Translations under genes and position numbers: made by a program | In this document: piece by piece, positions 11,523-41,105 of the stretch | Numbering within the stretch: the first letter of the stretch is position 1 | Layout: every line of letters starts with the position of its first letter | Origin: Parcubacteria bacterium SG8_24 | Lineage (GTDB): Bacteria > Patescibacteriota > Patescibacteriia > SG8-24 | Length of the DNA: 43,505 nucleotides | Direction: 5' to 3' | Assembly: GCA_001303185.1 (NCBI GenBank) | Contig: LJNP01000003.1 | Coordinates: 1 to 43,505 of the forward strand | Notes under the pieces: model-generated | What the model was told of the DNA's origin: nothing | Database searches by the model: none | Seen by the model: only the letters and a program-made list of their open reading frames with translations

Positions 11523-13820
11523 ATGTTCCTGCAGAAACTGGAGATGACCGGTTTCAAGTCCTTCGTGGACCGCACGGAGATAGATTTCCTGCCGCCCTCG
11601 GCCGCTTCCAAGGGCATCACCGCCGTGGTCGGCCCCAACGGCTCGGGCAAATCGAACGTGGCTGATGCTATCCGCTGGGTGCTCGGGGAACAGAGCACCA
11701 AGCTGCTGCGCGGCAAGAAGGCCGAGGATGTCATCTTCTCGGGCTCGGAGAAGAAGCCCCGCGCCAATTTCGCGGAGGTGACCATCTCCCTCAACAACGA
11801 GGATGGTCAGCTGCCGATGGACTATTCGGAGGTCTCCATATCCCGCCGCATCTATCGCGACGGTGATTCCGAGTACCTGATCAACAAGAACAAGGTCCGG
11901 CTGACCGATATCCAGCTGCTTCTGGCCCAAGCGCAGTTCGGAGCGCGGACCTATTCGGTCATCGGTCAGGGTATGGTGGACAACATCCTGATCGCCTCCC
12001 CGCAGGAACGCAAGGAATTCTTCGATGAGGCTGCTGGGGTCAAACAATACCAGCTGAAGCGCCACCAATCCCTCATCAAGATCAAGACGGCTCGGGAGAA
12101 CCTGTCTCAAGCCGAGATGCTGCTGACGGAGATCGCGCCGCGCCTCAGGTCCCTGGCCCGCCAGGCCAAACGTCTGGAGACCCGAGAGGGGCTCGAGGAG
12201 GAACTGCACGCCCTCAAACACCAGTACTACGGCAAGCTCTGGGAGCGTCTCCGGCTGCTGATCGACGACCGCCGTGCCTCGCTCGACAAGCTGGAAAGCG
12301 CCTGGAAGGACAAGGAGACGATGCGTGAGGCTGCCCAACGGGACCTGAGTGCCCTCGAAAAGGAAGAGACCGAGGCTCCGACAGACCGGTTCACCGAACT
12401 GCAGGATAGGTACGACGGCCTGGTCCAGGAACGTGCCGAACTGGAGAGTCGGCGGCTCAAGATACGGAGCGACCTGGAGGTGACGCGGCGGGTGCGGCAG
12501 GAGACTTCCGGCTCCCTCCCCCTCTCCAAGATCATCGATGAAGTCAACGAGATCGGCACGGGGCAAGACACCGCGGTCCGGCGGCTAACGTCGGCCAGTG
12601 ACCTCAAGGAAGCCCAAGCGACCATACCGGATTTCGAGAAGGTCGGGACAAAGGCCAAAGGACTGGCCACGAGACTGGAACGTCCGGCCAGTGAGCCGCC
12701 GGACCACGAGTCGGACCCGAAACTCACGGCGGAGATGGAGGGGCTCCGTCGGCAGGTCGCAGACAAGGACCGGGAGATCACGGAGATCCAGTCGGCCATC
12801 CAGGAATACAACCGCTCGGAACGCCAGAAGAAATCCAAGTTCTTCGACCTGCAACGGGAGCTGCAGCAGAAGATCGGCGTGGTGCACGACCTGGAACGCC
12901 GCCTCAACGAGGAGCGGGTGGAGATGGCCCGGCTGGATACGCGCCGGGAGGCCCTGGAAACGGAAATGGTCGCGGAGCTGGGCGAGAATGCCGACCGCAT
13001 CAAGACCGGCTTCACGGCGGACGATGAAGGCGATCCGGAGTCCTACCAACCGCGGATCCAGAAACTCAAATATCAGCTGGAACTGATCGGCGGGATCGAT
13101 CCCGAGGTGATGAAGGAATACGAAGAGACCAGGGAGCGTCATGATTTCCTGGAAAGCCAGACCAACGACCTCCGCAAGGCGATCGCCGACCTCCGAGCGG
13201 TCATCGCCGAACTGGACCTGACCATCAAGGCGGTGTCCGAAGCCTCTTTCCGCCGGCTCAACAAGAGCTTCGACCGTTACTTCAAGACCCTGTTCGGAGG
13301 CGGTCATGCCGAACTGATCCAGCTCAAGAGCGGCGGGACGGCAGATGCCGAGCCTGACGCCGAAGGGGGCGGCGACACCGACGGTCCGACAGATCAGCCG
13401 GACGATTTCGTGTCCCGAGACGTCGTCACCGGCATCGACATCAAAGCCACGCCGCCGGGAAAGAAGATCAGCAACATCACCATGCTCTCCGGCGGCGAGC
13501 GGGCCCTGACCTCGATAGCCCTCATCTGCGCCATCATGACCACCAATCCCTCGCCGTTCGTGGTGCTCGACGAGGTCGACGCGGCCCTCGACGAATCCAA
13601 TGCCGAACGGTTCGCCGCCATCCTCCAGGAACTGGCCGAAAGAACGCAGTTCATCATCATCACCCACAACCGTTACACCATGAACCGGTCCAACGTGCTC
13701 TATGGCGTGACGATGAACGATGCCGGGACGTCCCAGATCCTTTCGGTCAACCTGGAAGAGGCCGGGAAGATGAAAGGGAAGTCACGGAAAGTCCGGTCGG
13801 AGGAAATGGCGGCTGCCTGA
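11523..13820 (+). CDS. smc: chromosome segregation ATPase SMC, short form (765 aa)
   Basis: GFKSF, Walker A GPNGSGKSN, Q-loop IGQG, signature LSGGE, Walker B LDEVDAALD, FIIITH; coiled coils but no recognisable hinge. Confidence 0.9.
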   Translation: MFLQKLEMTGFKSFVDRTEIDFLPPSAASKGITAVVGPNGSGKSNVADAIRWVLGEQSTKLLRGKKAEDVIFSGSEKKPRANFAEVTISLNNEDGQLPMDYSEVSISRRIYRDGDSEYLINKNKVRLTDIQLLLAQAQFGARTYSVIGQGMVDNILIASPQERKEFFDEAAGVKQYQLKRHQSLIKIKTARENLSQAEMLLTEIAPRLRSLARQAKRLETREGLEEELHALKHQYYGKLWERLRLLIDDRRASLDKLESAWKDKETMREAAQRDLSALEKEETEAPTDRFTELQDRYDGLVQERAELESRRLKIRSDLEVTRRVRQETSGSLPLSKIIDEVNEIGTGQDTAVRRLTSASDLKEAQATIPDFEKVGTKAKGLATRLERPASEPPDHESDPKLTAEMEGLRRQVADKDREITEIQSAIQEYNRSERQKKSKFFDLQRELQQKIGVVHDLERRLNEERVEMARLDTRREALETEMVAELGENADRIKTGFTADDEGDPESYQPRIQKLKYQLELIGGIDPEVMKEYEETRERHDFLESQTNDLRKAIADLRAVIAELDLTIKAVSEASFRRLNKSFDRYFKTLFGGGHAELIQLKSGGTADAEPDAEGGGDTDGPTDQPDDFVSRDVVTGIDIKATPPGKKISNITMLSGGERALTSIALICAIMTTNPSPFVVLDEVDAALDESNAERFAAILQELAERTQFIIITHNRYTMNRSNVLYGVTMNDAGTSQILSVNLEEAGKMKGKSRKVRSEEMAAA

Positions 13821-14505: not shown

Positions 14506-14886
14506 ATGATAGTCATCAGACTTTCCCGAGTGGGCAAGAAGAAACAGCCGACCTACCGCATCGTGGTCCAGGAGAAACAGCGTGACCCCTGGGGCACTTC
14601 TCTGGAGATACTCGGCCACTACAACCCGCGCACCAAACCCAAGACCGTCTCCTTAAAGGAAGAACGGGTGCGTCACTGGCTGGCCCAAGGTGCCCGACCG
14701 ACGCCGACCGTGCATAATCTGCTGGTCGATGCCAAACTGATCGAAGGGTCGAAAGTCAAGGCGACCCAAGGAGAACAGAAGAAGCGGCAGGAGGCGGCCC
14801 GAAAGAAAGCCGAAGAGGCCCCCAAAGAGGCGGCAGTGGCCGCCGAAGCCCCTTCGGCCGAAGACGCCCCGACCGAAACGTCCTGA
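14506..14886 (+). CDS. rpsP: 30S ribosomal protein S16
   Basis: MIVIRLSRVGKKKQPTYRIVV...LGHYNP...WLAQGARPTPTVHNLL plus an Ala/Glu-rich tail. Confidence 0.97.
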   Translation: MIVIRLSRVGKKKQPTYRIVVQEKQRDPWGTSLEILGHYNPRTKPKTVSLKEERVRHWLAQGARPTPTVHNLLVDAKLIEGSKVKATQGEQKKRQEAARKKAEEAPKEAAVAAEAPSAEDAPTETS

Positions 14887-15146: not shown

Positions 15147-15482
15147 ATGGCAGAAGATCTCAAGGATCAAGAGTTTGTTGAATACGTCGTAAAGGCGATA
15201 GTCAACCATCCGGAGGACGTCAGGGTCGAAAGGACCATCGACGAGCGAGGCGTCCTGCTCACCCTTCATGTCAACCCGGATGACATGGGTTACGTCATCG
15301 GCAAGTCAGGTCAGACCGCCCGTTCGATCCGCACCCTTCTCAAGATCGTCGGCGCCAAGGGCAACGCCCGGGTGAACCTGAAGATTTACGAGCCGGAAGG
15401 GAGCCGCAGATCCTCCCAGTATTCGGCCCCGGCACCACAGGAAGAGGAGATCGATACCTCGGCCGTGGATCTGGAGATCTGA
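15147..15482 (+). CDS. khpA: KH-domain RNA-binding protein KhpA (YlqC family)
   Basis: FVEYVVKAIVNHPEDV..DMGYVIGKSGQTARSIRTLL; canonical position after rpsP; own promoter TTGACA (14988)-N17-TAGATT. Confidence 0.93.
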   Translation: MAEDLKDQEFVEYVVKAIVNHPEDVRVERTIDERGVLLTLHVNPDDMGYVIGKSGQTARSIRTLLKIVGAKGNARVNLKIYEPEGSRRSSQYSAPAPQEEEIDTSAVDLEI

Positions 15483-15507: not shown

Positions 15508-15533
15508 ACCCCGCATCATCGATGCGGGGTTTT
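15508..15533 (+). terminator. intrinsic terminator after khpA
   Basis: ACCCCGCATC-ATC-GATGCGGGGTTTT. Confidence 0.75.
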
Positions 15534-15642
15534 GGATATCCACCCTTGCCAAAAAGGGGGTTCCGTGGAAAGATGCCCTGACGCCCGTCGATACGGGTCG
15601 TCTGTCGCTACTCGGACCTCTGGCGTTTCAGGAGATGACACG

Positions 15643-16842
15643 ATGACCACCGATTTTACGGACCGAGACACGGCTTCGCAGTTCCTTAAACAGATGTCTG
15701 ACCATCCCCTCCTCACCAAGGAGGAGGAGTGCTGGCTGGCTAAGCTGGCCCAGGGTCGGGTCGTCAGCCGTCCGCTGAGGTTCTCGGTGGACCGTCAGTG
15801 CGGAAAGATGCGGGCCAATGACCGACCGATCCGCTCCCCGCGGACCGCAGAAGCGGTCCGTATCGTCCGCCCACATCAGGACGAACGGGTCAGCGGACGT
15901 ATCCATTTCTCGCTGAGGCTGGCCTGCCCGCTGCCCGATTTCCCTCTGGCCGGACTGGAGATCGTCATCAAACCCGCCGGCCCGGGCAAGCGTCGACCGG
16001 TCGCCCGACTGGCCTGCCGCCATCACGGGCGCTGGGGCTGGTACGCCCGGTGCGACGACGGACAGATCGATCCGGGGCGCTACATCGCCGTAGTGCAGGC
16101 CGGACCGTCGCTGCAACGTGCGGCACTCGAGGAATTCATGCGGTGCAACTACCGTCTGGTGCTCAAGATCGCCAACAAGTTCCTCTGGTCGGGGATGGAC
16201 ATGATCGACCTCTTCACCGAGGGTACCCTCGGGCTGCAGAAGGGTGTCGGACGCTTCGAGCCCGAACGGGGCTACCGTTTCTGCACCTACGCCGGACACT
16301 GGATCCGGCAGTCGATCAGCCGGGCTGTCTACAACCAGAGCCGGACTATCCGCATCCCGGTACACCAGTGGGGTCGGAACCAGAAGCTGGCCAAGAGCTC
16401 GCGTCGCGTCGCCGACAGCGATCTCTGTCCACCGGAGCTGGAGACGCTGGCCGAGGACGCCCAGATCGACCTGGAACATGCCAAAGGGACCCAGCGCGCC
16501 TTCCAGCAGACCATGGTACCGCTGGAGACGCCGATCGGTCCCGACGGCAACGGCACCCTGGCCGACGTGCTCGAGGACGATCCGGACGGCGAGAGGGATC
16601 CCCACAACCTCATCGAGTGCAGCGAACTCAACGAGAAGCTGGACTGGGCGATCGCCCAACTCGACCCTCGGGAACAGGCCATCATCAGACTGAGGTTCGG
16701 CCTGACCGATGACCGCGACCTGACCCTGGAAAAGGTGGGTAAGCGGTTCGGGGTCACCAGGGAACGGATCCGGCAGATCGAGGAAAAGGTCCTCGGGAAA
16801 CTGCGCCGCCACCTGGCGAGACAGGGCTTGACCGGCATCTAG
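15643..16842 (+). CDS. RpoD-like (group 2-type) sigma70 factor with an insertion between regions 1.2 and 2.1
   Basis: Region 1.2 FLKQMSDHPLLTKEEE; region 2 NYRLVLKIA..DLFTEGTLGL..RFEPERGYRFCTYAGHWIRQ; RTIRIPVH; region 4 LRFGL..TLEKVGKRFGVTRERIRQIE; no region 1.1; CAGGAG SD. Confidence 0.9.
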   Translation: MTTDFTDRDTASQFLKQMSDHPLLTKEEECWLAKLAQGRVVSRPLRFSVDRQCGKMRANDRPIRSPRTAEAVRIVRPHQDERVSGRIHFSLRLACPLPDFPLAGLEIVIKPAGPGKRRPVARLACRHHGRWGWYARCDDGQIDPGRYIAVVQAGPSLQRAALEEFMRCNYRLVLKIANKFLWSGMDMIDLFTEGTLGLQKGVGRFEPERGYRFCTYAGHWIRQSISRAVYNQSRTIRIPVHQWGRNQKLAKSSRRVADSDLCPPELETLAEDAQIDLEHAKGTQRAFQQTMVPLETPIGPDGNGTLADVLEDDPDGERDPHNLIECSELNEKLDWAIAQLDPREQAIIRLRFGLTDDRDLTLEKVGKRFGVTRERIRQIEEKVLGKLRRHLARQGLTGI

Positions 16843-16923
16843 GTGCCGGTCTTTTATGTTATGGTATAGACGGTGCGGTCCGGCGTGACCGGAACCCCAT
16901 CGTCCAGATAACCCTATCAGGTC

Positions 16924-17607
16924 ATGAGATTCGACATCATCACCATCTTCCCCCGGATGTTCGACAACTACCTGTCCGAGTCGATAATCAAGCGCGCCCG
17001 CAAGCGCCGGCTCTTGGACATCCGGATGCATGACCTGCGGACATGGACCACCGACCGGCACCGCTCCGTCGACGACCGGCCGTTCGGCGGCGGACCGGGC
17101 ATGGTGATGATGGTCGGCCCCTTCCACCGAGCCCTCAAATCACTGAGGATCCGCGACCGCCGGAAGACGAGGGTCATCTTGCTTTCGGCCAAAGGCAAGA
17201 CCTTCTCCCACCGGGAGGCGGTACGCCTGTCCAAGTACCGCCGGATCGTATTGTTGTGCGGCCGGTACGAGGGGGTGGACGAACGCGTGGCCCGCCATCT
17301 GGCCGACGAGGAGATCTCTATCGGCGAATACGTCCTGACCGGCGGTGAGTTACCGGCTCTGGTGGTCCTCGATGCCGTGGCCCGACAGGTGCCGGGAGTG
17401 ATCGGCAAGGCGGTCTCGCTTCAGGAGGAATCCCACGCGACAGAAGGCGTGACCGAATATCCGCAATATACCCGGCCGGCTGATTATTCGCCGGCCAAAG
17501 GCCAGCACTGGCGCGTGCCCCAGGTCCTGCTCTCCGGGAATCACAGCAAGATCGCCGAATGGCGCGCCCGGAAATCACGACACCTACCCAAAAAGAAGGC
17601 TAAATAA
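16924..17607 (+). CDS. trmD: tRNA (guanine37-N1)-methyltransferase
   Basis: MRFDIITIFP, VDDRPFGGGPGMVM, LCGRYEGVDERV, SIGEYVLTGGE, EYPQYTRP, VPQVLLSGNH. Confidence 0.98.
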   Translation: MRFDIITIFPRMFDNYLSESIIKRARKRRLLDIRMHDLRTWTTDRHRSVDDRPFGGGPGMVMMVGPFHRALKSLRIRDRRKTRVILLSAKGKTFSHREAVRLSKYRRIVLLCGRYEGVDERVARHLADEEISIGEYVLTGGELPALVVLDAVARQVPGVIGKAVSLQEESHATEGVTEYPQYTRPADYSPAKGQHWRVPQVLLSGNHSKIAEWRARKSRHLPKKKAK

Positions 17608-17623: not shown

Positions 17624-17754
17624 TTGACACCCACACGGTACCTCTATATACTATCCCCTGAGCGTCCGACCTGCTTAAGCGGGCCTCCGGACAGCTCTCT
17701 TATTTTCCGCTGACCTAGGGTCTCTTGACGCTTAAGCGTCTGATGCCCTAAAAT
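17624..17754 (+). promoter_or_regulatory. tandem rRNA promoters P1 and P2
   Basis: TTGACA (17624)-N17-TATACT (17647); TTGACG (17725)-N18-TAAAAT (17749); boxA-like GGACTTTGACAA near 17782. Confidence 0.75.
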
Positions 17755-17867: not shown

Positions 17868-19374
<1,507 letters not shown>

Positions 19375-27182: not shown

Positions 27183-27695
27183 TCAGACCTGCTGACGGTA
27201 GAACGTCCGGGTATGGGCCAAGGTGATGGCCAGAGCCAGGGCATCCGCCGCATCATCAGGCCGAGGTGTCTCGCGCAGGTTAAGCAGCATCTGCACCATC
27301 TTCTGCATCTCCTTCTTGCCGGCCCGCCCATGTCCGCAGACCGCCACCTTGACCTCGGAAGGCCCGAACTCACGATAGGGAATACGATTGTTCTCGAGAC
27401 AGAGCCGGATGACCCCGCGGGCCTCCGCGACCGACATGGCGGTCTTGACGTTCTTGGAGAAGAATATCCTCTCCAGGGCGACATGCGACGGACGGAACCT
27501 CTCCACTACCTCCTCGAGTCGGGCATACAGCTCCTGCAGCCTGGCCGCCGCCGGTAGGGCCGGCGAGGTCTGGATGCTGCCGTAGGTCAGACAGCGCTCC
27601 CGGCTGTCCTTGATCTCGATGACGCCATACCCGAGATCGGCGAATCCCGGATCCAATCCCAGATAGACGGTGCTGACCGGACGGTAAGGCGTCAT
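27183..27695 (-). CDS. ruvC: Holliday junction resolvase RuvC
   Basis: LGLDPG..GYGVI, ALERIFFSKN, ARGV, VKVAVCGHGRAGK, PDDAADALALA. Confidence 0.97.
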   Translation of the reverse strand: MTPYRPVSTVYLGLDPGFADLGYGVIEIKDSRERCLTYGSIQTSPALPAAARLQELYARLEEVVERFRPSHVALERIFFSKNVKTAMSVAEARGVIRLCLENNRIPYREFGPSEVKVAVCGHGRAGKKEMQKMVQMLLNLRETPRPDDAADALALAITLAHTRTFYRQQV

Positions 27696-28414
27696 ATGAA
27701 CTCGGCTGACGTATATATCTCGTTGACGTCCTCATCGTCATCCAATGACTCCAGAAGACCCTCCAGACTTTTCCGCTCCGCCCCGCCGACACTGACCGGT
27801 TCCTTGCAGACCCATTCCAAACCGGCCGACCCGACCTCCAGGCCGACGGCCTCGGCCGCCTCACGGATGCGGCTCAGGTCGGTGGCCGGAGCCAAGGCGA
27901 TCTGCCGCCCCTCTTCTTCGGCGATATCCTCAGTACCGGCGTCGATAAGGGCCATTTCCTGACCTTCGGTCAACGGTTGGCCCTCTTTGAGACGGATGAC
28001 GGCCCGCCGTTCGAACATCCACTGTACCGCTCCCGAACCGGCCAGGTTACCGCCGTACCTGCCGAACAGATGTTTCAGATTGGCGCTGGTCCGGTTACGG
28101 TTGTCCGTCAACGCTTCCACCAGTACGGCTATGCCGCCGGGACCGAAACCCTCATAGAGTACCTCCTCGATGTTGTCGCCTCCGATCTCACCGGTCCCCC
28201 GTTTGACCGCCTTATCGATGTTATCCTTGGGCATGTTACCGGATACCGCACTGTCGATCGCCGTACGCAACCTGAAATTGAACTCGGGGTCACCGCCGCC
28301 CTCGCGGGCCGCTACGGTGATCGCTTTGGCCAGCTTGGTGAAGAGCGCCGCCCGCCGCTTGTCGGCAGCGCCTTTCCGGTGTCTGATATTGGCCCATTTG
28401 GAGTGTCCCGACAT
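27692..28414 (-). CDS. yebC: YebC/PmpR family protein
   Basis: MSGHSKWANIRHRKG, YEGFGPGG, TDNRNRT; canonical yebC-ruvC pair. Confidence 0.97.
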   Translation of the reverse strand: MSGHSKWANIRHRKGAADKRRAALFTKLAKAITVAAREGGGDPEFNFRLRTAIDSAVSGNMPKDNIDKAVKRGTGEIGGDNIEEVLYEGFGPGGIAVLVEALTDNRNRTSANLKHLFGRYGGNLAGSGAVQWMFERRAVIRLKEGQPLTEGQEMALIDAGTEDIAEEEGRQIALAPATDLSRIREAAEAVGLEVGSAGLEWVCKEPVSVGGAERKSLEGLLESLDDDEDVNEIYTSAEFI

Positions 28415-28511
28415 AAGTCGCGTGAGCTGATGCTGAAATCCTATCATCCGCTGATGCAATTCACAACGCGCCCGGCGGCCCGCCGGATACCGACATCGCG
28501 GCCGGAAAACC

Positions 28512-28547
28512 AAAAACCGAACGGTCCGGCCGATGAGGCCGGACCGT
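28512..28547 (-). terminator. terminator after rpoC
   Basis: ACGGTCCGGCC-N5-GGCCGGACCGT hairpin, followed on the minus strand by TCGGTTTTT. Confidence 0.6.
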
Positions 28548-28574: not shown

Positions 28575-31500
28575 TCAGGCGGTGACCTCCTCTGTCTCTC
28601 TCTCTTCGTCCGGCGTCCCCCCTTCGGCCACGCCAGATGAACCGTAACCCGTACCGGCCGGTATGAGCCGACCGATGATGACGTTCTCCTTCAGGCCTTC
28701 CAACGGATCGATCTTACCCGTGACCGCGGCATTGATGAGCACCCGGGCGGTCTCCTGGAAGGATGCGGCGGACAGGAAGCTCTGCGTCGACAGGGCTACT
28801 TTGGTGATACCCAGGAAGAGCTCGTCGGCCACCGCCCCCTTGCCGTCCTTCTCTGTCACCGCGCGGTTTTCCTCGATCAGCTGGGCCTTCTCGACTATCT
28901 CACCGGGCAGGAGATCGGTATCTCCGGCGTCCTTGATATGCACCCTGGAGAACATCTGCTTGATGATCACCTCGATGTGCTTATCGTTCAGCTTCTGACC
29001 CTGTGAGGTATAGATCGATTGCACTTCCTTTAGGATATACTTCTGTACCGCCTCCTTGCCGCGCAGGCGGAAGAGCTGCTGCAGGTCCAGGCTGCCCTCC
29101 GTCAGGGCCTGTCCGGCCTCAACCTCATCACCGGTCTTCACGAACAGGACGTAACCGGGCGGAATGATGTACTCCTTGATCTTATCCATCTGCCTGACGA
29201 CCTTCAGCTGACGTTTCTCGAGACGCGCCGTCCCGGCGGCGGTCGCCTGGACCTTGTTGCCGCTGGCCTTGACCACCACGACCTGGCCCTCCTTGACCGC
29301 ATCACCCTCCTTGACCTTGACCTCATCCTTGGATGAGAACTTATAGGTCTCGCCATCCTCTTCCGAGTAGGAGACCTTGACGATCTTATGCCCGATATAG
29401 GGCGCCAACATCTTCTGTCCCTCCGGCCCCTCGATCATCCGCCTCTCGATCTCCTCGACGGTGACCGCGCCAGAGACATCGCTCATGAAAGCCTTGCGTT
29501 TGGGCGGCCGGGCTTCGAAAAGCTCCTCGACGCGGGGCAGACCTTGCGTGATGTCGGCACCGGCCACGCCTCCGGTATGGAAGGTGCGCATGGTGAGCTG
29601 CGTCCCCGGTTCGCCGATAGACTGCGCGGCCATGATACCCACGGCCGTACCGACCTCCACCGGCTCATTGTAGGCCAGATCGTGGCCGTAGCACTTCCGA
29701 CAGACCCCCTTGGAGAGACGGCATTCCATGACCGACCTGACGTGCACCTCATCCAGATCCATATCCTTGATCTCATCGGACAACTCCCGGGTGATCAACT
29801 CGCCCTTCCTGACCACCGCCTTACCGGTCCTGGGGTCCTTGATGGCTGAGGCCAGATACCGTCCCAGGATACGGGAGAGGACCGTCTCGTTCATCTCGTC
29901 ACTTTCCTTCTTGGTGATGAGAATACCTTCGGCGTCACCGCAGTCCTCCTCGCGGATCACCACGTCCTGGGCCACGTCAACCAGACGGCGTGTCAAGTAG
30001 CCGGCATTGGCCGTCCGCAGCGCCGTATCGGAGAGACCCTTACGGGCGCCGTGCGTCGAGATGAAGTATTCCAGGACATCGAAACCGTCCTTGAAGTTGG
30101 CCTTGACCGGCAGCTCGATGATGGCGCCGGCCGGATTGGCTACGAGCCCCTTCATGCCGACGATCTGGGTGAGCTGGCCCCAGCTGCCGCGGGCCCCGGA
30201 TTCTATCATCGAGGCCACGGATCCGCCGGTCGGCAGTTTCTCCTTGGAGAGCTTGGTCACCTGGTCCTTGACGTTGGTCCAGACATCCACGATCTTGGAG
30301 TGCCGCTCCGACTGCGTCAGCAGACCTTCCTGGTACTGTTCCTCGATCTCCTCGATCTTGCGGTCCCCGCCCTCGACCAGTTCGCGCTTCTCCTTGATGG
30401 CCGGCAGGTCGGCCATGCCCCAGGAATAGCCGGAGACGGTGATGTAATGGAAACCCAGCTCCTTCATGTCGTCGAGCAGCACCGTGGTCCGTTCCCGGCC
30501 GTAGGTCTCCAGGCAGCTGCGGACGATATCGGTGAGCTTCTTGGAATCGAGCTGCTCGTTAACGTAGGGGTGGTCCTTGGGCAATACCCGGTTGAAGAAG
30601 ACCCGACCGACATTGGTCTCCACCGGCTTGGCCCCGGTCTCGAGCCGGACCAGTATCTTCTCGCGCATCTCGATCTTCCTCAGCCGGTAAGCCACGATCG
30701 CCTCCTTGGTGTCGGTGAATACACGGGGCTCCTCGCGGTCGCGCGGCGGGATGAATGACGTCATGTAATAGATGCCCCAGGCCACGTCCTTGTCTGGTTT
30801 CATGATCGGCATCCCGGTGGCCGGTTTGAGCAGGTTCATGACCGAGGACATCTTGTCCCGGGCCTCAGCCTTGGCCTCTTCGGTGAGCGGTACGTGAACC
30901 GCCATCTGATCACCGTCGAAGTCGGCGTTGAAAGCCGGACAGACCATCGGGTGGATCTGGATCGCCTTACCCTCGATCATCCGGGGACAGAATGCCTGGA
31001 TACCGAGACGGTGTAGGGTCGGGGCACGGTTCAGCAACACCAGAGAATCCTTGGTGATCTCCTCGAGGATATCCCAGACCTCCGGATGATCCTGGTCGAT
31101 GAACCGGTTGGCGCTCCTGATGTTATGGACATACCCCCGCTGGATGAGCTGGGATATGACGAAAGGCTTGAAAAGCTCGAGGGCCATCATCTTGGGCAGA
31201 CCGCACTCGTTGAGCTTGAGCCCGGGACCGACCACGATGACCGAACGCCCGGAATAGTCGATGCGCTTACCGAGCAGGTTCTGCCGGAAACGGCCCTGCT
31301 TTCCCTTGAGGATGTCGGCCAGGGATTTGAGCTGGCGCTTCTTGCCGGTAGCGGCCACGACCGTCTTCGACTGTCGGGCCGAATTGTCGATCAGGGCGTC
31401 GACCGCCTCCTGGAGCATGCGCTTCTCGTTCCTGGTGATGACCTCCGGAGCGTTGAGCTCGACCAGTTTCTTGAGGCGGTTGTTGCGGTTGATGACGCGC

Positions 31501-32510
31501 CGATAGAGGTCGTTGAGGTCGGACGCCGCGAACCGGCCGCCGTCGAGCGGCACCATTGGCCGCAGATCCGGCGGAATCACCGGTATCACGGTGAGGACCA
31601 TCCACTCCGGCCGGATCCCGTTCACCTGAAGCGAATGCATCAGCTTGACCCGGCGGACCAGCTTGTCGTACTTGGCCCCCACCGCCGCCTCCTCCATCTG
31701 CTCGTTCAGGAACTCGGCCGTCTTGTCGATGTCTATCTTCTCGAGAAGCTTGCGGATGGCACCGGCTCCGATGTCTGCTTCGAACAGGTGGCCGTAACGA
31801 AGGGACCATTCCTGGTAAGTGTGTTCCGAGATGATCTTGAGCGGTACCAGCTCCTTGAGTTCACGATCCACGGAACGGAAGTCCTCATCAAGGGCCTTCA
31901 TCTTCTCCGTCTTCACCTCGAAGGCCTGATTGAACAGCTTCTCCCGCTCCGCGTCGGATGACGCGTTCTTCTCCGCTTCGGACACGGCCCGCTTGTACTC
32001 CCCGTCGATCTGTTTCTTCTTCTGCTTATATTCCGCCTTCAGCTGTTCCTGCGTGTCCTTCTTCAGCTCCTCGTCGACGTTGGTGACGATGAAATTAGCG
32101 AAATAGATCACCTTCTCCAGGTTCTGTACCGACAGGTCGAGCACCAGGCCTATCTTGGAGGGAACGCCGCGCAGGAACCAAATATGGGAGACCGGCGCGG
32201 ACAGCTCGATGTGGCCCATGCGCTCACGGCGCACCAGGGAATGGGTCACCTCGACGCCGCACTTGTCGCAGATGATGCCCTTGTACCGCACCTTCTTGTA
32301 TTTGCCGCAATAGCACTCCCAGTCCTTGGTGGGGCCGAATATCTCTTCGGCGAACAGGCCACCCTTCTCCGGTTTCTGGGTGCGGTAATTGATCGTCTCC
32401 GGATTGGTCACCTCGCCGTAGGACCACTGGCGGATGGTCTCTGGGGAAGCGACCTTGAGCCGCACGGCATCGAAGTCTTGTATCTTGAACTGTTCGACGA
32501 TGGGATTCAT
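28575..32510 (-). CDS. rpoC: RNA polymerase beta' subunit
   Basis: CYCGKYK..CDKCGVEVT, GRFRQNLLGKR, NRAPTLHRLG, catalytic NADFDGD, GEPGTQLTMRTFH, GLKENVIIG. Confidence 0.99.
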   Translation of the reverse strand: MNPIVEQFKIQDFDAVRLKVASPETIRQWSYGEVTNPETINYRTQKPEKGGLFAEEIFGPTKDWECYCGKYKKVRYKGIICDKCGVEVTHSLVRRERMGHIELSAPVSHIWFLRGVPSKIGLVLDLSVQNLEKVIYFANFIVTNVDEELKKDTQEQLKAEYKQKKKQIDGEYKRAVSEAEKNASSDAEREKLFNQAFEVKTEKMKALDEDFRSVDRELKELVPLKIISEHTYQEWSLRYGHLFEADIGAGAIRKLLEKIDIDKTAEFLNEQMEEAAVGAKYDKLVRRVKLMHSLQVNGIRPEWMVLTVIPVIPPDLRPMVPLDGGRFAASDLNDLYRRVINRNNRLKKLVELNAPEVITRNEKRMLQEAVDALIDNSARQSKTVVAATGKKRQLKSLADILKGKQGRFRQNLLGKRIDYSGRSVIVVGPGLKLNECGLPKMMALELFKPFVISQLIQRGYVHNIRSANRFIDQDHPEVWDILEEITKDSLVLLNRAPTLHRLGIQAFCPRMIEGKAIQIHPMVCPAFNADFDGDQMAVHVPLTEEAKAEARDKMSSVMNLLKPATGMPIMKPDKDVAWGIYYMTSFIPPRDREEPRVFTDTKEAIVAYRLRKIEMREKILVRLETGAKPVETNVGRVFFNRVLPKDHPYVNEQLDSKKLTDIVRSCLETYGRERTTVLLDDMKELGFHYITVSGYSWGMADLPAIKEKRELVEGGDRKIEEIEEQYQEGLLTQSERHSKIVDVWTNVKDQVTKLSKEKLPTGGSVASMIESGARGSWGQLTQIVGMKGLVANPAGAIIELPVKANFKDGFDVLEYFISTHGARKGLSDTALRTANAGYLTRRLVDVAQDVVIREEDCGDAEGILITKKESDEMNETVLSRILGRYLASAIKDPRTGKAVVRKGELITRELSDEIKDMDLDEVHVRSVMECRLSKGVCRKCYGHDLAYNEPVEVGTAVGIMAAQSIGEPGTQLTMRTFHTGGVAGADITQGLPRVEELFEARPPKRKAFMSDVSGAVTVEEIERRMIEGPEGQKMLAPYIGHKIVKVSYSEEDGETYKFSSKDEVKVKEGDAVKEGQVVVVKASGNKVQATAAGTARLEKRQLKVVRQMDKIKEYIIPPGYVLFVKTGDEVEAGQALTEGSLDLQQLFRLRGKEAVQKYILKEVQSIYTSQGQKLNDKHIEVIIKQMFSRVHIKDAGDTDLLPGEIVEKAQLIEENRAVTEKDGKGAVADELFLGITKVALSTQSFLSAASFQETARVLINAAVTGKIDPLEGLKENVIIGRLIPAGTGYGSSGVAEGGTPDEERETEEVTA

Positions 32511-32553
32511 AGGCTTGTGGTCATGATGGCGAACGATGCGTCAGGATGGATGC

Positions 32554-36072
<3,519 letters not shown>

Positions 36073-36371
36073 AAAGAGACGTGGAGATCTCCCCTGCACC
36101 GGGGTTTTATTATTATGGTAGGTGGCGACGTGCGCCGCCCATCCTTCGTCGTGACACCCATCCTCACGACCGCTGTGGAACGATGGGCGTGGTATACAAA
36201 AATAATCCCCTGCCCTCCGTTGCTCACGAGCATCCGCAGACAGGGAAATCTCGACTCGGCCTCGATTTAGGTTATGATGCCGGTCAACATCGCGTTATTC
36301 GCTGATCCACGATGACCACCAGGAATCATCGTCATTCCTCTCTATCCTTAATAGGAGAGAAGTTCGGCATG

Positions 36372-40367: not shown

Positions 40368-41105
40368 ATGACTCCGGTGACGACACAAGACAGGACAGCG
40401 ACCGATATCGGGACACTCCTGCGCACCAGGCGCGAGGAGTTCGGCCTGTCTCGGGAGAAGGTGGCCCAACAGACCGGTTTGCCGCTCAAGTACCTGGTGA
40501 CACTCGAGGAACAGGACCTGCATCGTCTACCTAACGACGTCTATACCCGGATCTACCTCAAGACCTATGCCCGTTTCCTAGGGGTGGATGATGCGGTAGT
40601 GGCCGGAACGCTGGCGCGGCTGAGACAGGTGCACCATCCTGAGGAGAGCGGCGATTTCGGTCCGGAATCGCGCCGGAAGCACCCTCGGACGTCCGTCCCG
40701 ACCAAGCATCTGCTGGTGACACCCAAACTCATCCAGCGGGCCCTCATCCTGTTCGCGGTCTGCGGTCTGGGCGTCTACCTGGTCTCCGCCGTCAAGGATA
40801 TCGTCGCGCCGCCGGAGATCTCCCTCTATAACCCTCGCGACGGATATGTCACTGCTGACAACAGCGTGATGGTCGAGGGTAAGACGGAGCGTGAGGTGGT
40901 GCTTCACATCAACGGCAAGATGGTACCGACGGATGAGGGGGGTAACTTCACCGACACGCTGGAGCTGCAGACCGGCCTTAACGTGATCAAGGTCGTCGGC
41001 ACCAAGAAACACAGCAAAGAGATGGTCATCACGCGCCGCGTGATCGTCCGGCCCTCAGACCGTCCGACAGCTTCGCTGAAGGACGTCCGGGAGGGGGGGT
41101 TGTGA
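40368..41105 (+). CDS. RodZ-like HTH (XRE) membrane protein with a C-terminal Ig-like domain
   Basis: IGTLLRTRRE..GLS..YL..LE..LP.DVYTRIYLKTYARFLGVD; one TM; PPEISLYNP.DG..V.GKTE..L.TGLNVIKV. Confidence 0.85.
   Translation: MTPVTTQDRTATDIGTLLRTRREEFGLSREKVAQQTGLPLKYLVTLEEQDLHRLPNDVYTRIYLKTYARFLGVDDAVVAGTLARLRQVHHPEESGDFGPESRRKHPRTSVPTKHLLVTPKLIQRALILFAVCGLGVYLVSAVKDIVAPPEISLYNPRDGYVTADNSVMVEGKTEREVVLHINGKMVPTDEGGNFTDTLELQTGLNVIKVVGTKKHSKEMVITRRVIVRPSDRPTASLKDVREGGL

Follow-up and report, generated by a model that had tools for sequence, protein, structure and literature searches.

The 43,505-nt stretch analysed here (the window; positions 1 to 43,505, forward strand, of contig LJNP01000003.1 of Parcubacteria bacterium SG8_24) carries between khpA and trmD a sigma-70 family gene whose 399-aa product, P0001, is interrupted by a long segment between regions 1.2 and 2.1, and the question that this locus raises is what such a segment is, where it came from and what it may do in a sigma factor. 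An initial annotation of the same DNA had described an RpoD-like alternative sigma factor with an immunoglobulin (Ig)-like insert, sitting in the place of rimM, and had suggested docking or sensing as the role of the insert. We conclude that P0001 is almost certainly an alternative sigma factor with a real, conserved insert, and that residues 71–156 form, with good confidence, a divergent member of the Big_7-type Ig-like domains. The statement as a whole, that an alternative sigma factor bears a captured, basic Ig-like insert making stabilizing contacts with promoter DNA, is one that we hold with a little more confidence than doubt.

All the motifs quoted in the initial annotation are present in the 399-aa translation of 15643–16842 (+), and the translation together with the Pfam boundaries bears out an insertion of about 120 residues (38–160) between regions 1.2 and 2.1, where 120–128 residues are without Pfam assignment. 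The insert is in frame and has a G+C content at third codon positions (GC3) of 0.76, as in genes here; it is Arg- and Pro-rich, with a second-position value (GC2) of 0.56 versus 0.41 in the remainder of the gene. All 12 of the trmD-linked sigma factors that we read from relatives pass directly from a region-1.2-like segment (…LL..EE…L…Q.GD) to region 2.1. An exhaustive phmmer search with residues 35–166 against 1.84 billion cluster representatives returned two non-self matches at E ≤ 0.001, namely P0122, a 395-aa metagenomic sigma factor matched over residues 43–163 (E 3.1e-6, 33% identity), and P0121, a 2047-aa protein matched in 10 stretches, which is a repeat protein of acidic, low-complexity sequence, ankyrin-like repeats included, so that its match was judged spurious. 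A word-based search with the P0122 insert found P0123 (395 aa, metagenomic; 63% identical to P0122 in the insert), and the search for sigma-70 proteins with the same insert that had been proposed at the outset has in this way yielded two orthologues. The insert is known in three proteins among about 15 billion. These are collinear and align from residue 1; identity among them is 34–39% in the insert versus 34–35% over the whole protein, and an alignment of the three inserts with short flanks (A3) contains 39 invariant columns, including S-x-P-x-R, R-P, V-x-G-x-x-H-F-S, C125, RWGWYAR and G-x-Y-x-A-V-V.

At the nucleotide level, an 866-nt contig of a separate study and sample matches 15723–16588 letter for letter, a stretch that spans most of the sigma gene including the insert, and a low-depth 230-nt sludge-metagenome contig (2023 study) shows 11 differences over 15837–16065 (229 nt, about 95% identical), four of the seven listed differences being synonymous. 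Since the sludge contig is about 95% identical to the mid-insert, we take it that a close relative of the P0001 gene exists outside marine sediment. The genome holds no second copy of the insert DNA, the insert has no terminal or flanking repeats other than short chance repeats and no Rfam match at the gathering score, and no intein junctions (Cys/Ser ... His-Asn) were seen on reading the P0001 sequence. Scans of genome contigs (one locus) and of metagenome contigs (three loci) with the insert profile returned motif stretches of 6–48 residues with no adjacent sigma gene, which we do not count as relatives.

A Sigma70_r2 search of the genome (1.12 Mb, 67 contigs, rated 98.9% complete), which by its size and gene content seems to be of the CPR/Patescibacteria type, identified four genes: P0001, an RpoD on contig C4, and one short extracytoplasmic function (ECF)-like sigma factor on each of contigs C40 and C5. 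The 388-aa RpoD, encoded after the C-terminal part of dnaG, follows the RpoD consensus throughout, has a WW dyad and joins region 1.2 to region 2.1 without an insert; it is the primary sigma factor. In trees of regions 2–4 it lies within a tight clade of relatives' RpoD proteins, with P0001 outside (support 93/77) on a long branch without resolved affiliation. Because a separate canonical rpoD exists in the genome, we take P0001 to be an extra, RpoD-related alternative sigma factor and not the primary one, in line with what had been supposed initially.

In other respects P0001 resembles an ordinary sigma factor. Regions 1.2 and 3 score under their Pfam cut-offs and are in the correct places; in the full-length AlphaFold2 (AF2) model, region 1.2 forms helices 8–19 and 26–36 with a predicted local distance difference test (pLDDT) score above 80, region 3 is helical, and a Foldseek search with the whole model matches sigma-A chains (E about 1e-14). 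Only 12 residues stand ahead of region 1.2, and the protein has no region 1.1. A whole-protein homology search, of which we consider the best 120 of 7,996 matches, gave RpoD proteins as the best among the matches listed (41–46% identity over regions 2–4, 55–79% of the query), none of those 120 covering the insert (at best 43% identity with 60% coverage). The region 4 helix VTRERIRQIE is as in the aligned RpoD proteins, where its columns include invariant ones (alignment A1), and most positions of regions 2.3/2.4 are those invariant in the RpoD alignment; from these RpoD-like residues of regions 4.2 and 2.3/2.4 we infer that the promoters of P0001 are probably near the housekeeping type. Two peculiarities noted initially are present in P0001 and are not shared by its orthologues. 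The Trp dyad of region 2 is HW (TYAGHWIRQ) in P0001 and WW in its own RpoD, P0122 and P0123; and the nine Cys of its 399 residues compare with six and five in P0122 and P0123, with C125 as the sole invariant one, so that nothing points to a metal or redox centre.

As to the nature of the insert, a hidden Markov model (HMM) of the three inserts, run over the 24 genomes of the family to which this organism belongs (family f1), matched one giant open reading frame (ORF) in each of two relatives, of 1844 aa (E 0.002) and 1565 aa (E 0.006), the E values being per genome. Both consist of tandem repeats of about 100 aa that Pfam assigns to Big_7 (PF17957, ‘Bacterial Ig domain’; E 5.8e-25 and 2.1e-11), 8 of 18 single repeats matching Big_7 when taken alone. 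By hhalign, the inserts (A3) and the 18 relatives' repeats align at 84.6% (E 6.8e-6, score 35.1) over 79 columns, almost the entire repeat, a value subject to some selection bias because the relatives' giant proteins were chosen as the best matches of the insert profile; the bias is tempered in that all repeats were used and in that a replicate with eight repeats of a giant protein from the genome itself scored higher (93.7%, E 1.9e-7, score 43.4, 76 columns). Column shuffles (100 + 100, and 50 for the own-genome set) reached maxima of 15.2, 14.6 and 13.8 (means 9.4–9.7, standard deviations 1.7–1.9), and the reversed alignment scored 12.8. Reciprocally, an HMM of the repeats only, run on P0122, P0123 and every stop-to-stop ORF of the genome (12,116 sequences in total), placed the genome's own giant protein first (E 5e-115, nine clear repeats), with P0123 (E 0.0035) and P0122 (E 0.065) next. 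Inserts and repeats share the pattern V-x-[IV]-x-x-P … V-x-G-x-[IV]-x-[FL]-S … [FI]-x-I-x-P … W-x-A-x-W-[ND]-S-x-x-[VL]-x-N-G-x-Y-x-[VA], which is essentially the Ig-like pattern recognized in the initial annotation.

An AF2 model of the insert from the three sequences is all-beta rather than helical or disordered, with eight to nine strands (model residues 11–16, 21–24, 38–46, 52–59, 71–77, 87–94, 98–104 and 111–119) ahead of the region 2.1 helix (mean pLDDT 60, predicted template-modelling score 0.62), and with two short strands of low confidence in the leader. The Ig-like domain derives most likely from the lineage's own surface-protein repeats, and the giant protein of the genome itself is a likely donor type. 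That protein (contig C38:11739–16085 (−), locus L082, outside the window) has about 1,430 aa, an N-terminal hydrophobic segment, at least nine tandem Big_7-type repeats and a TSP3-like repeat; it matches Big_7 (E 1.6e-17) and Big_13, and its gene contains a short masked (N) stretch.

The net charge of the insert is +14, +15 and +10 in the three insert-bearing proteins; of the charge in P0001, +6 lies in the 33-aa leader and +7 in the Ig core, and the remainder of the protein is near neutral. Among the giant-protein repeats net charges lie between −14 and +3 (mean −3.7), and among those of the genome itself between −9 and +3. We suggest that in a small sub-lineage, known from three proteins, a module of about 120 aa, made up of the basic leader and a beta-sandwich (about 85 aa) that shares ancestry with the Big_7-type repeats of giant secreted proteins, was inserted at the region 1.2/2.1 junction, and that after capture the Ig-like domain turned strongly basic, the donor-type repeats being acidic to neutral. 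Presumably projecting from sigma domain 2 at the point of the non-conserved region (NCR) of other sigma factors, the basic domain could make electrostatic contacts with spacer or upstream −10 DNA, by which open complexes would be stabilized or promoter preference changed. The insert would then be a built-in counterpart of the contact between the Escherichia coli NCR and DNA or of CarD-type factors. In a study of E. coli sigma-70, the NCR is located between regions 1.2 and 2.1 and contacts DNA, and the authors propose that a separate transcription factor fills its role in other bacteria (10.1101/256826). A search of the genome for a CarD/TRCF RID-domain protein found none.

Charge and position are what point to a place of the insert in the holoenzyme from which it may touch promoter DNA, and to the regulatory consequence; that it does so, stabilizing open complexes or shifting promoter preference, is a tentative suggestion whose chances we put somewhat short of even. 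Rather more doubtful is the bolder idea that a repeat of a giant, adhesin-like extracellular protein, captured into the NCR site and changed from acidic to basic, acts as a built-in DNA clamp in the manner of the Ig-fold modules of eukaryotic Rel/STAT/p53-type factors; if true, the clamp would serve as an open-complex stabilizer, or the sigma factor itself would read a new upstream promoter element, in a CarD-less minimal genome.

Several points weigh against our reading, in addition to the selection bias named above. No Pfam family is found in the P0001 insert at E ≤ 10, nor in the P0122 and P0123 inserts at E ≤ 1, and the repeat-only HMM gives P0001 itself only E 30, so that the Ig link rests on the three-sequence profile and mainly on the two orthologues. 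The structure models of the insert are of low confidence: in the full-length AF2 model, made with 37 sigma sequences, pLDDT is below 50 for residues 42–137, the insert having been left unmodelled because the other alignment rows are gapped there. The check by AlphaFold with Foldseek or profile comparison, as proposed initially, had a divided outcome, since the all-beta model and the profile alignments agree with an Ig-like domain and Foldseek with the insert model found nothing in the PDB at E ≤ 0.001; its weak top matches are FAD-binding and riboflavin-synthase beta-barrels and not Ig domains (E about 0.1, TM-score about 0.3). VIA-align, which is independent of Foldseek, favours an Ig-like fold in that the best neighbours of the insert model (36–128) are FN3 cytokine-receptor domains, a GH9 cellulase's N-terminal Ig domain and MG1 of E. 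coli alpha-2-macroglobulin (Z 5.0–5.8, root-mean-square deviation 2.6–2.9 over 71–85 residues), but a Z under 8 can mean merely a common arrangement. On the same side, the neighbours of the ESM Atlas model include YtkA and MG2 (TM-score about 0.5, all under the bar). The ESM Atlas feature search was uninformative (scores 0.79 or less), and comparison of the insert profile with PDB chain sequences gave chance-level matches only (HicB, E 0.065; LEAFY, E 0.27). With regard to descent, the tree of regions 2–4 alone does not unite P0001 with P0122 and P0123 (20% of bootstrap trees); in the careful version of that tree P0122 and P0123 are sister to one trmD-linked sigma factor of a family member (82/94), and constraining the three together raises the log-likelihood by 15.1 units over the result of the quick free search (approximately unbiased test, p 0.76). 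Finally, the DNA binding, expression and RNA polymerase association of P0001 are predicted only.

Among the alternatives, the one that survives best is that the insert is a protein–protein docking or sensor module, facing an activator or anti-sigma-like partner or the beta-prime/beta surface of RNA polymerase, and not DNA. Binding of other proteins is what Ig-like domains typically do, the NCR that E. coli has at the same site also binds beta-prime, and the insert bears conserved surface-type motifs such as RWGWYAR and HFS. However, no candidate partner gene is linked, the neighbours being khpA, trmD, rpsP and a 16S rRNA gene, and the conserved charge of +10 to +15 suits nucleic acid at least equally, although it would suit an acidic protein surface too; we regard docking as possible, but unlikely. 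The notion of a passenger, tolerated at a permissive site and without a function of its own, gains something from the rarity of the insert and from the unrelated sequences that the region 1.2/2.1 junction takes elsewhere (about 90 residues in the sister family f2, and the E. coli NCR, 10.1101/256826). Considering that, in orthologues about 34% identical overall, conservation of the insert equals that of the sigma core, that its charge is shifted in the same direction in all three proteins and, as a weak point given the low depth, that synonymous changes make up four of the seven differences listed for the 95%-identical contig, we find a passenger improbable.

It is very improbable, moreover, that the insert has some other beta fold, for example a reductase, elongation-factor or RimM N-terminal barrel, perhaps as a remnant of rimM, with its Ig likeness convergent. 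The weak barrel matches of Foldseek and the usual place of rimM, which the gene occupies, are set against the hhalign results with their clean shuffles and the Ig-like sandwiches that head the VIA-align list. A likeness of the insert to the RimM N terminus, seen by eye, was dropped, as no RimM model matches insert or genome: PF01782 and TIGR02273 are unmatched in the genome at E ≤ 1, and the insert shows no RimM match in Pfam at E ≤ 10. In a comparison covering the genome itself and 40 relatives of its class (23 of family f1, 13 of sister family f2 and 4 others), none of the 41 had a PF01782 match, while 10 of 14 control genomes were positive by the same search; a rimM remnant would thus have no local donor. 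That the insert is an assembly chimera, a frameshift or a mobile element or intron absent from the mature protein, as its Arg/Pro-rich composition might suggest, has a negligible probability and is rejected because of the architecture shared with two orthologues, the identical contig from another sample, the gene-like GC3 and the lack of insert copies, terminal repeats and Rfam matches. Our preferred reading is that P0001 is an alternative sigma factor with a probably captured, basic Ig-like insert; the features of its locus are listed in the table.

Table. Features of the sigma gene and its neighbourhood (window positions; residues refer to P0001)
Feature	Position	Strand	Evidence
rpsP, for ribosomal protein S16; heads the cluster	14506..14886	+	Pfam Ribosomal_S16, E 2.2e-19
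khpA (KH-domain protein)	15147..15482	+	Pfam KH_KhpA-B, E 6.9e-24
Terminator-like hairpin at the khpA/sigma boundary: 10 bp, perfect, GC-rich, 3-nt loop, then TTTTGG	15508..15537	+	Inverted-repeat search (I4)
Shine–Dalgarno-like AGGAG, 8 nt ahead of ATG 15643	15630..15634	+	Read from sequence
Sigma-70 family gene, 399 aa (P0001), group-2-like, with insert	15643..16842	+	Translation, Pfam, Foldseek
Region 1.2, residues 13–37	15679..15753	+	Pfam Sigma70_r1_2, 20.4 bits, E 5e-4, under the 22-bit cut-off
Insert leader, basic, residues 38–70; motif S-x-P-[LV]-R-[FV]-[ST]-V conserved	15754..15852	+	Alignments A2, A3
Ig-like (Big_7-like) beta-sandwich core, probable, residues 71–156	15853..16110	+	hhalign, AF2 (6–7 strands), VIA-align
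Region 2, residues 166–234	16138..16344	+	Pfam Sigma70_r2 (PF04542), 49 bits, cut-off 24, E 5.3e-13
Region 3, residues 248–313, divergent	16384..16581	+	Pfam Sigma70_r3, 18.3 bits, under the 25.3-bit cut-off
Region 4, residues 336–388	16648..16806	+	Pfam Sigma70_r4 (PF04545), 64 bits, cut-off 24.1, E 8.7e-18
Terminator-like hairpin, 9 pairs, plus TTTTATGTTA (T-run); overlaps the sigma stop codon	16830..16861	+	Terminator scan
trmD (tRNA m1G37 methyltransferase)	16924..17607	+	Pfam tRNA_m1G_MT, E 9.1e-55

The hairpins on both sides suggest that the sigma gene is probably its own transcription unit. The upstream one is not listed in the terminator scan because its T-run is short, and a promoter scan between it and ATG 15643 found no sigma-70-type promoter. 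ATG 15643 was taken as the start in preference to TTG 15532 upstream because of the AGGAG motif and because both orthologues align from residue 1. An antisense ORF (15628–17127), longer than the sigma ORF, is not considered a gene because its base pattern (first-position G+C content 0.82, GC3 0.64) mirrors the real coding pattern, genes here having a GC3 of 0.7–0.83. Directly downstream of trmD lies a complete 16S rRNA gene (17868–19374 (+), 1,507 nt) without large insertion, and ahead of it (17624–17754) are two promoters close to the sigma-70 consensus, TTGACA-17-TATACT and TTGACG-18-TAAAAT; trmD is not followed by rplS.

The gene order rpsP–khpA–sigma–trmD is as initially described, and the sigma gene does sit between khpA and trmD. 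What does not hold is a takeover from rimM particular to this genome, in which the proposed check for rimM came out negative. Sixteen of the 23 other family f1 genomes (hand count) have a sigma match on the contig and strand of trmD, at most about 2 kb upstream of it and in 12 of the 16 directly adjacent, some with two or three tandem copies, and the entire khpA–sigma–trmD order is visible in the loci of five relatives; in one genus, three genomes have khpA and trmD side by side, without an intervening sigma gene. None of the 13 sister family f2 genomes and none of the four further genomes of the class has a trmD-linked sigma gene. The khpA–trmD gap thus appears as the usual site of sigma paralogues in family f1, within a lineage that has no recognizable rimM, and it is because of both that we see no rimM replacement specific to this genome.

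Tandem arrays of sigma genes, with two or three copies directly upstream of trmD, occur in several family f1 genomes, and one family f2 genome has three large sigma factors in a row (526, 495 and 597 aa, stop to stop); the loci concerned are L066 (G030:C10:12000–19200), L077 (G011:C7), L076 (G005:C27) and L078 (G004:C5). Local duplication of sigma genes seems to take place in these small genomes. Elsewhere in the window, rpoC (28575–32510, 1,310 aa) and rpoB (32554–36099, 1,180 aa) occupy 28575–36099 (−), and these genes would help to reconstitute the cognate core enzyme; a YebC/TACO1-family gene (27692–28513) stands after them. At 40368–41105 (+) a 245-aa protein has an HTH_25 (RodZ-type) domain at its N terminus and a Glucodextran_B beta-sandwich at its C terminus, a further case in this genome of a beta-sandwich module joined to a helix-turn-helix protein. 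An SMC-like protein at 11523–13820 (+) has only 765 aa (SMC_N, residues 2–737), with heads present and the coiled coil much shortened, canonical SMC proteins having about 1,180 aa.

The accessory parts known in sigma factors are helical insertions (the NCR), the acidic N-terminal region 1.1 and the C-terminal extensions of ECF sigma factors; we know of no Ig domain inside a sigma NCR site, and no sigma factor with an Ig-like insert was found in the literature searched, a listing-level check that is no proof of absence. The parts described here, the sigma-70 family, the NCR site and the Big_7 domain, are known, and their combination appears to be new and rare. If our reading is true, an Ig-like domain at the NCR site would be a new way of altering promoter recognition in cis and a clear instance of the core transcription machinery taking up a domain of a surface protein, with a bearing on regulatory diversification in ultra-small uncultured bacteria that have few transcription factors; sigma paralogues have multiplied beside trmD in family f1, and different inserts have been gained at the same junction in two neighbouring families. 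The rarity of the insert, the want of a cultured host, the weak fold model and the inferred function set practical limits, yet for transcription specialists an Ig domain in this site should be unexpected and testable.

In comparison with known systems, P0001 is close to the group 2 sigma factors (such as RpoS, cyanobacterial SigB–E and actinobacterial HrdA–D), with which it shares regions 2 and 4, probable regions 1.2 and 3, an absent or short region 1.1, RpoD-like residues for −10/−35 recognition and coexistence with a primary RpoD, and from which it differs by the inserted domain, the HW dyad and an unresolved affiliation in trees. The trmD-linked sigma factors of family f1 have the same locus and strand and share a Q/V-W motif after a RIPV-type box, but the 12 inspected lack the insert and are only 27–35% identical. 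As for the insert itself, the Big_7 domains (PF17957) of giant secreted proteins agree with it in length class (about 85–100 aa) and sequence pattern, whereas they are tandem and acidic and the insert of P0001 is single, cytoplasmic by context, basic, placed inside a sigma factor and missed by the Pfam model.

The region 1.2/2.1 junction evidently tolerates insertions, because the second sigma paralogues of family f2 (416–451 aa; L059–L065 and L067–L069) carry some 90 extra, unrelated residues there. Their insert is conserved among the paralogues, with motifs such as F-N-P-x-x-L-x-G-x-x-L; in contrast to that of P0001 it looks helical, it has no similarity to the latter (no match to the insert HMM) and its genes are not trmD-linked, so that we regard it as an independent insertion at the same site. 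The NCR of E. coli sigma-70, a helical segment of about 245 aa that is acidic overall, is likewise a lineage-specific insertion at the identical site, but it belongs to an essential primary sigma factor, whereas the P0001 insert has about 120 aa, is predicted to be all-beta, is basic and stands in an extra sigma factor, and the two have no sequence relation. More generally, accessory domains have been grafted in cis onto the transcription machinery, as in the sandwich-barrel hybrid motifs of RNA polymerase beta and beta-prime and the C-terminal extensions of ECF sigma factors; P0001 resembles these in bearing an accessory folded domain and differs in bearing it at the NCR site.

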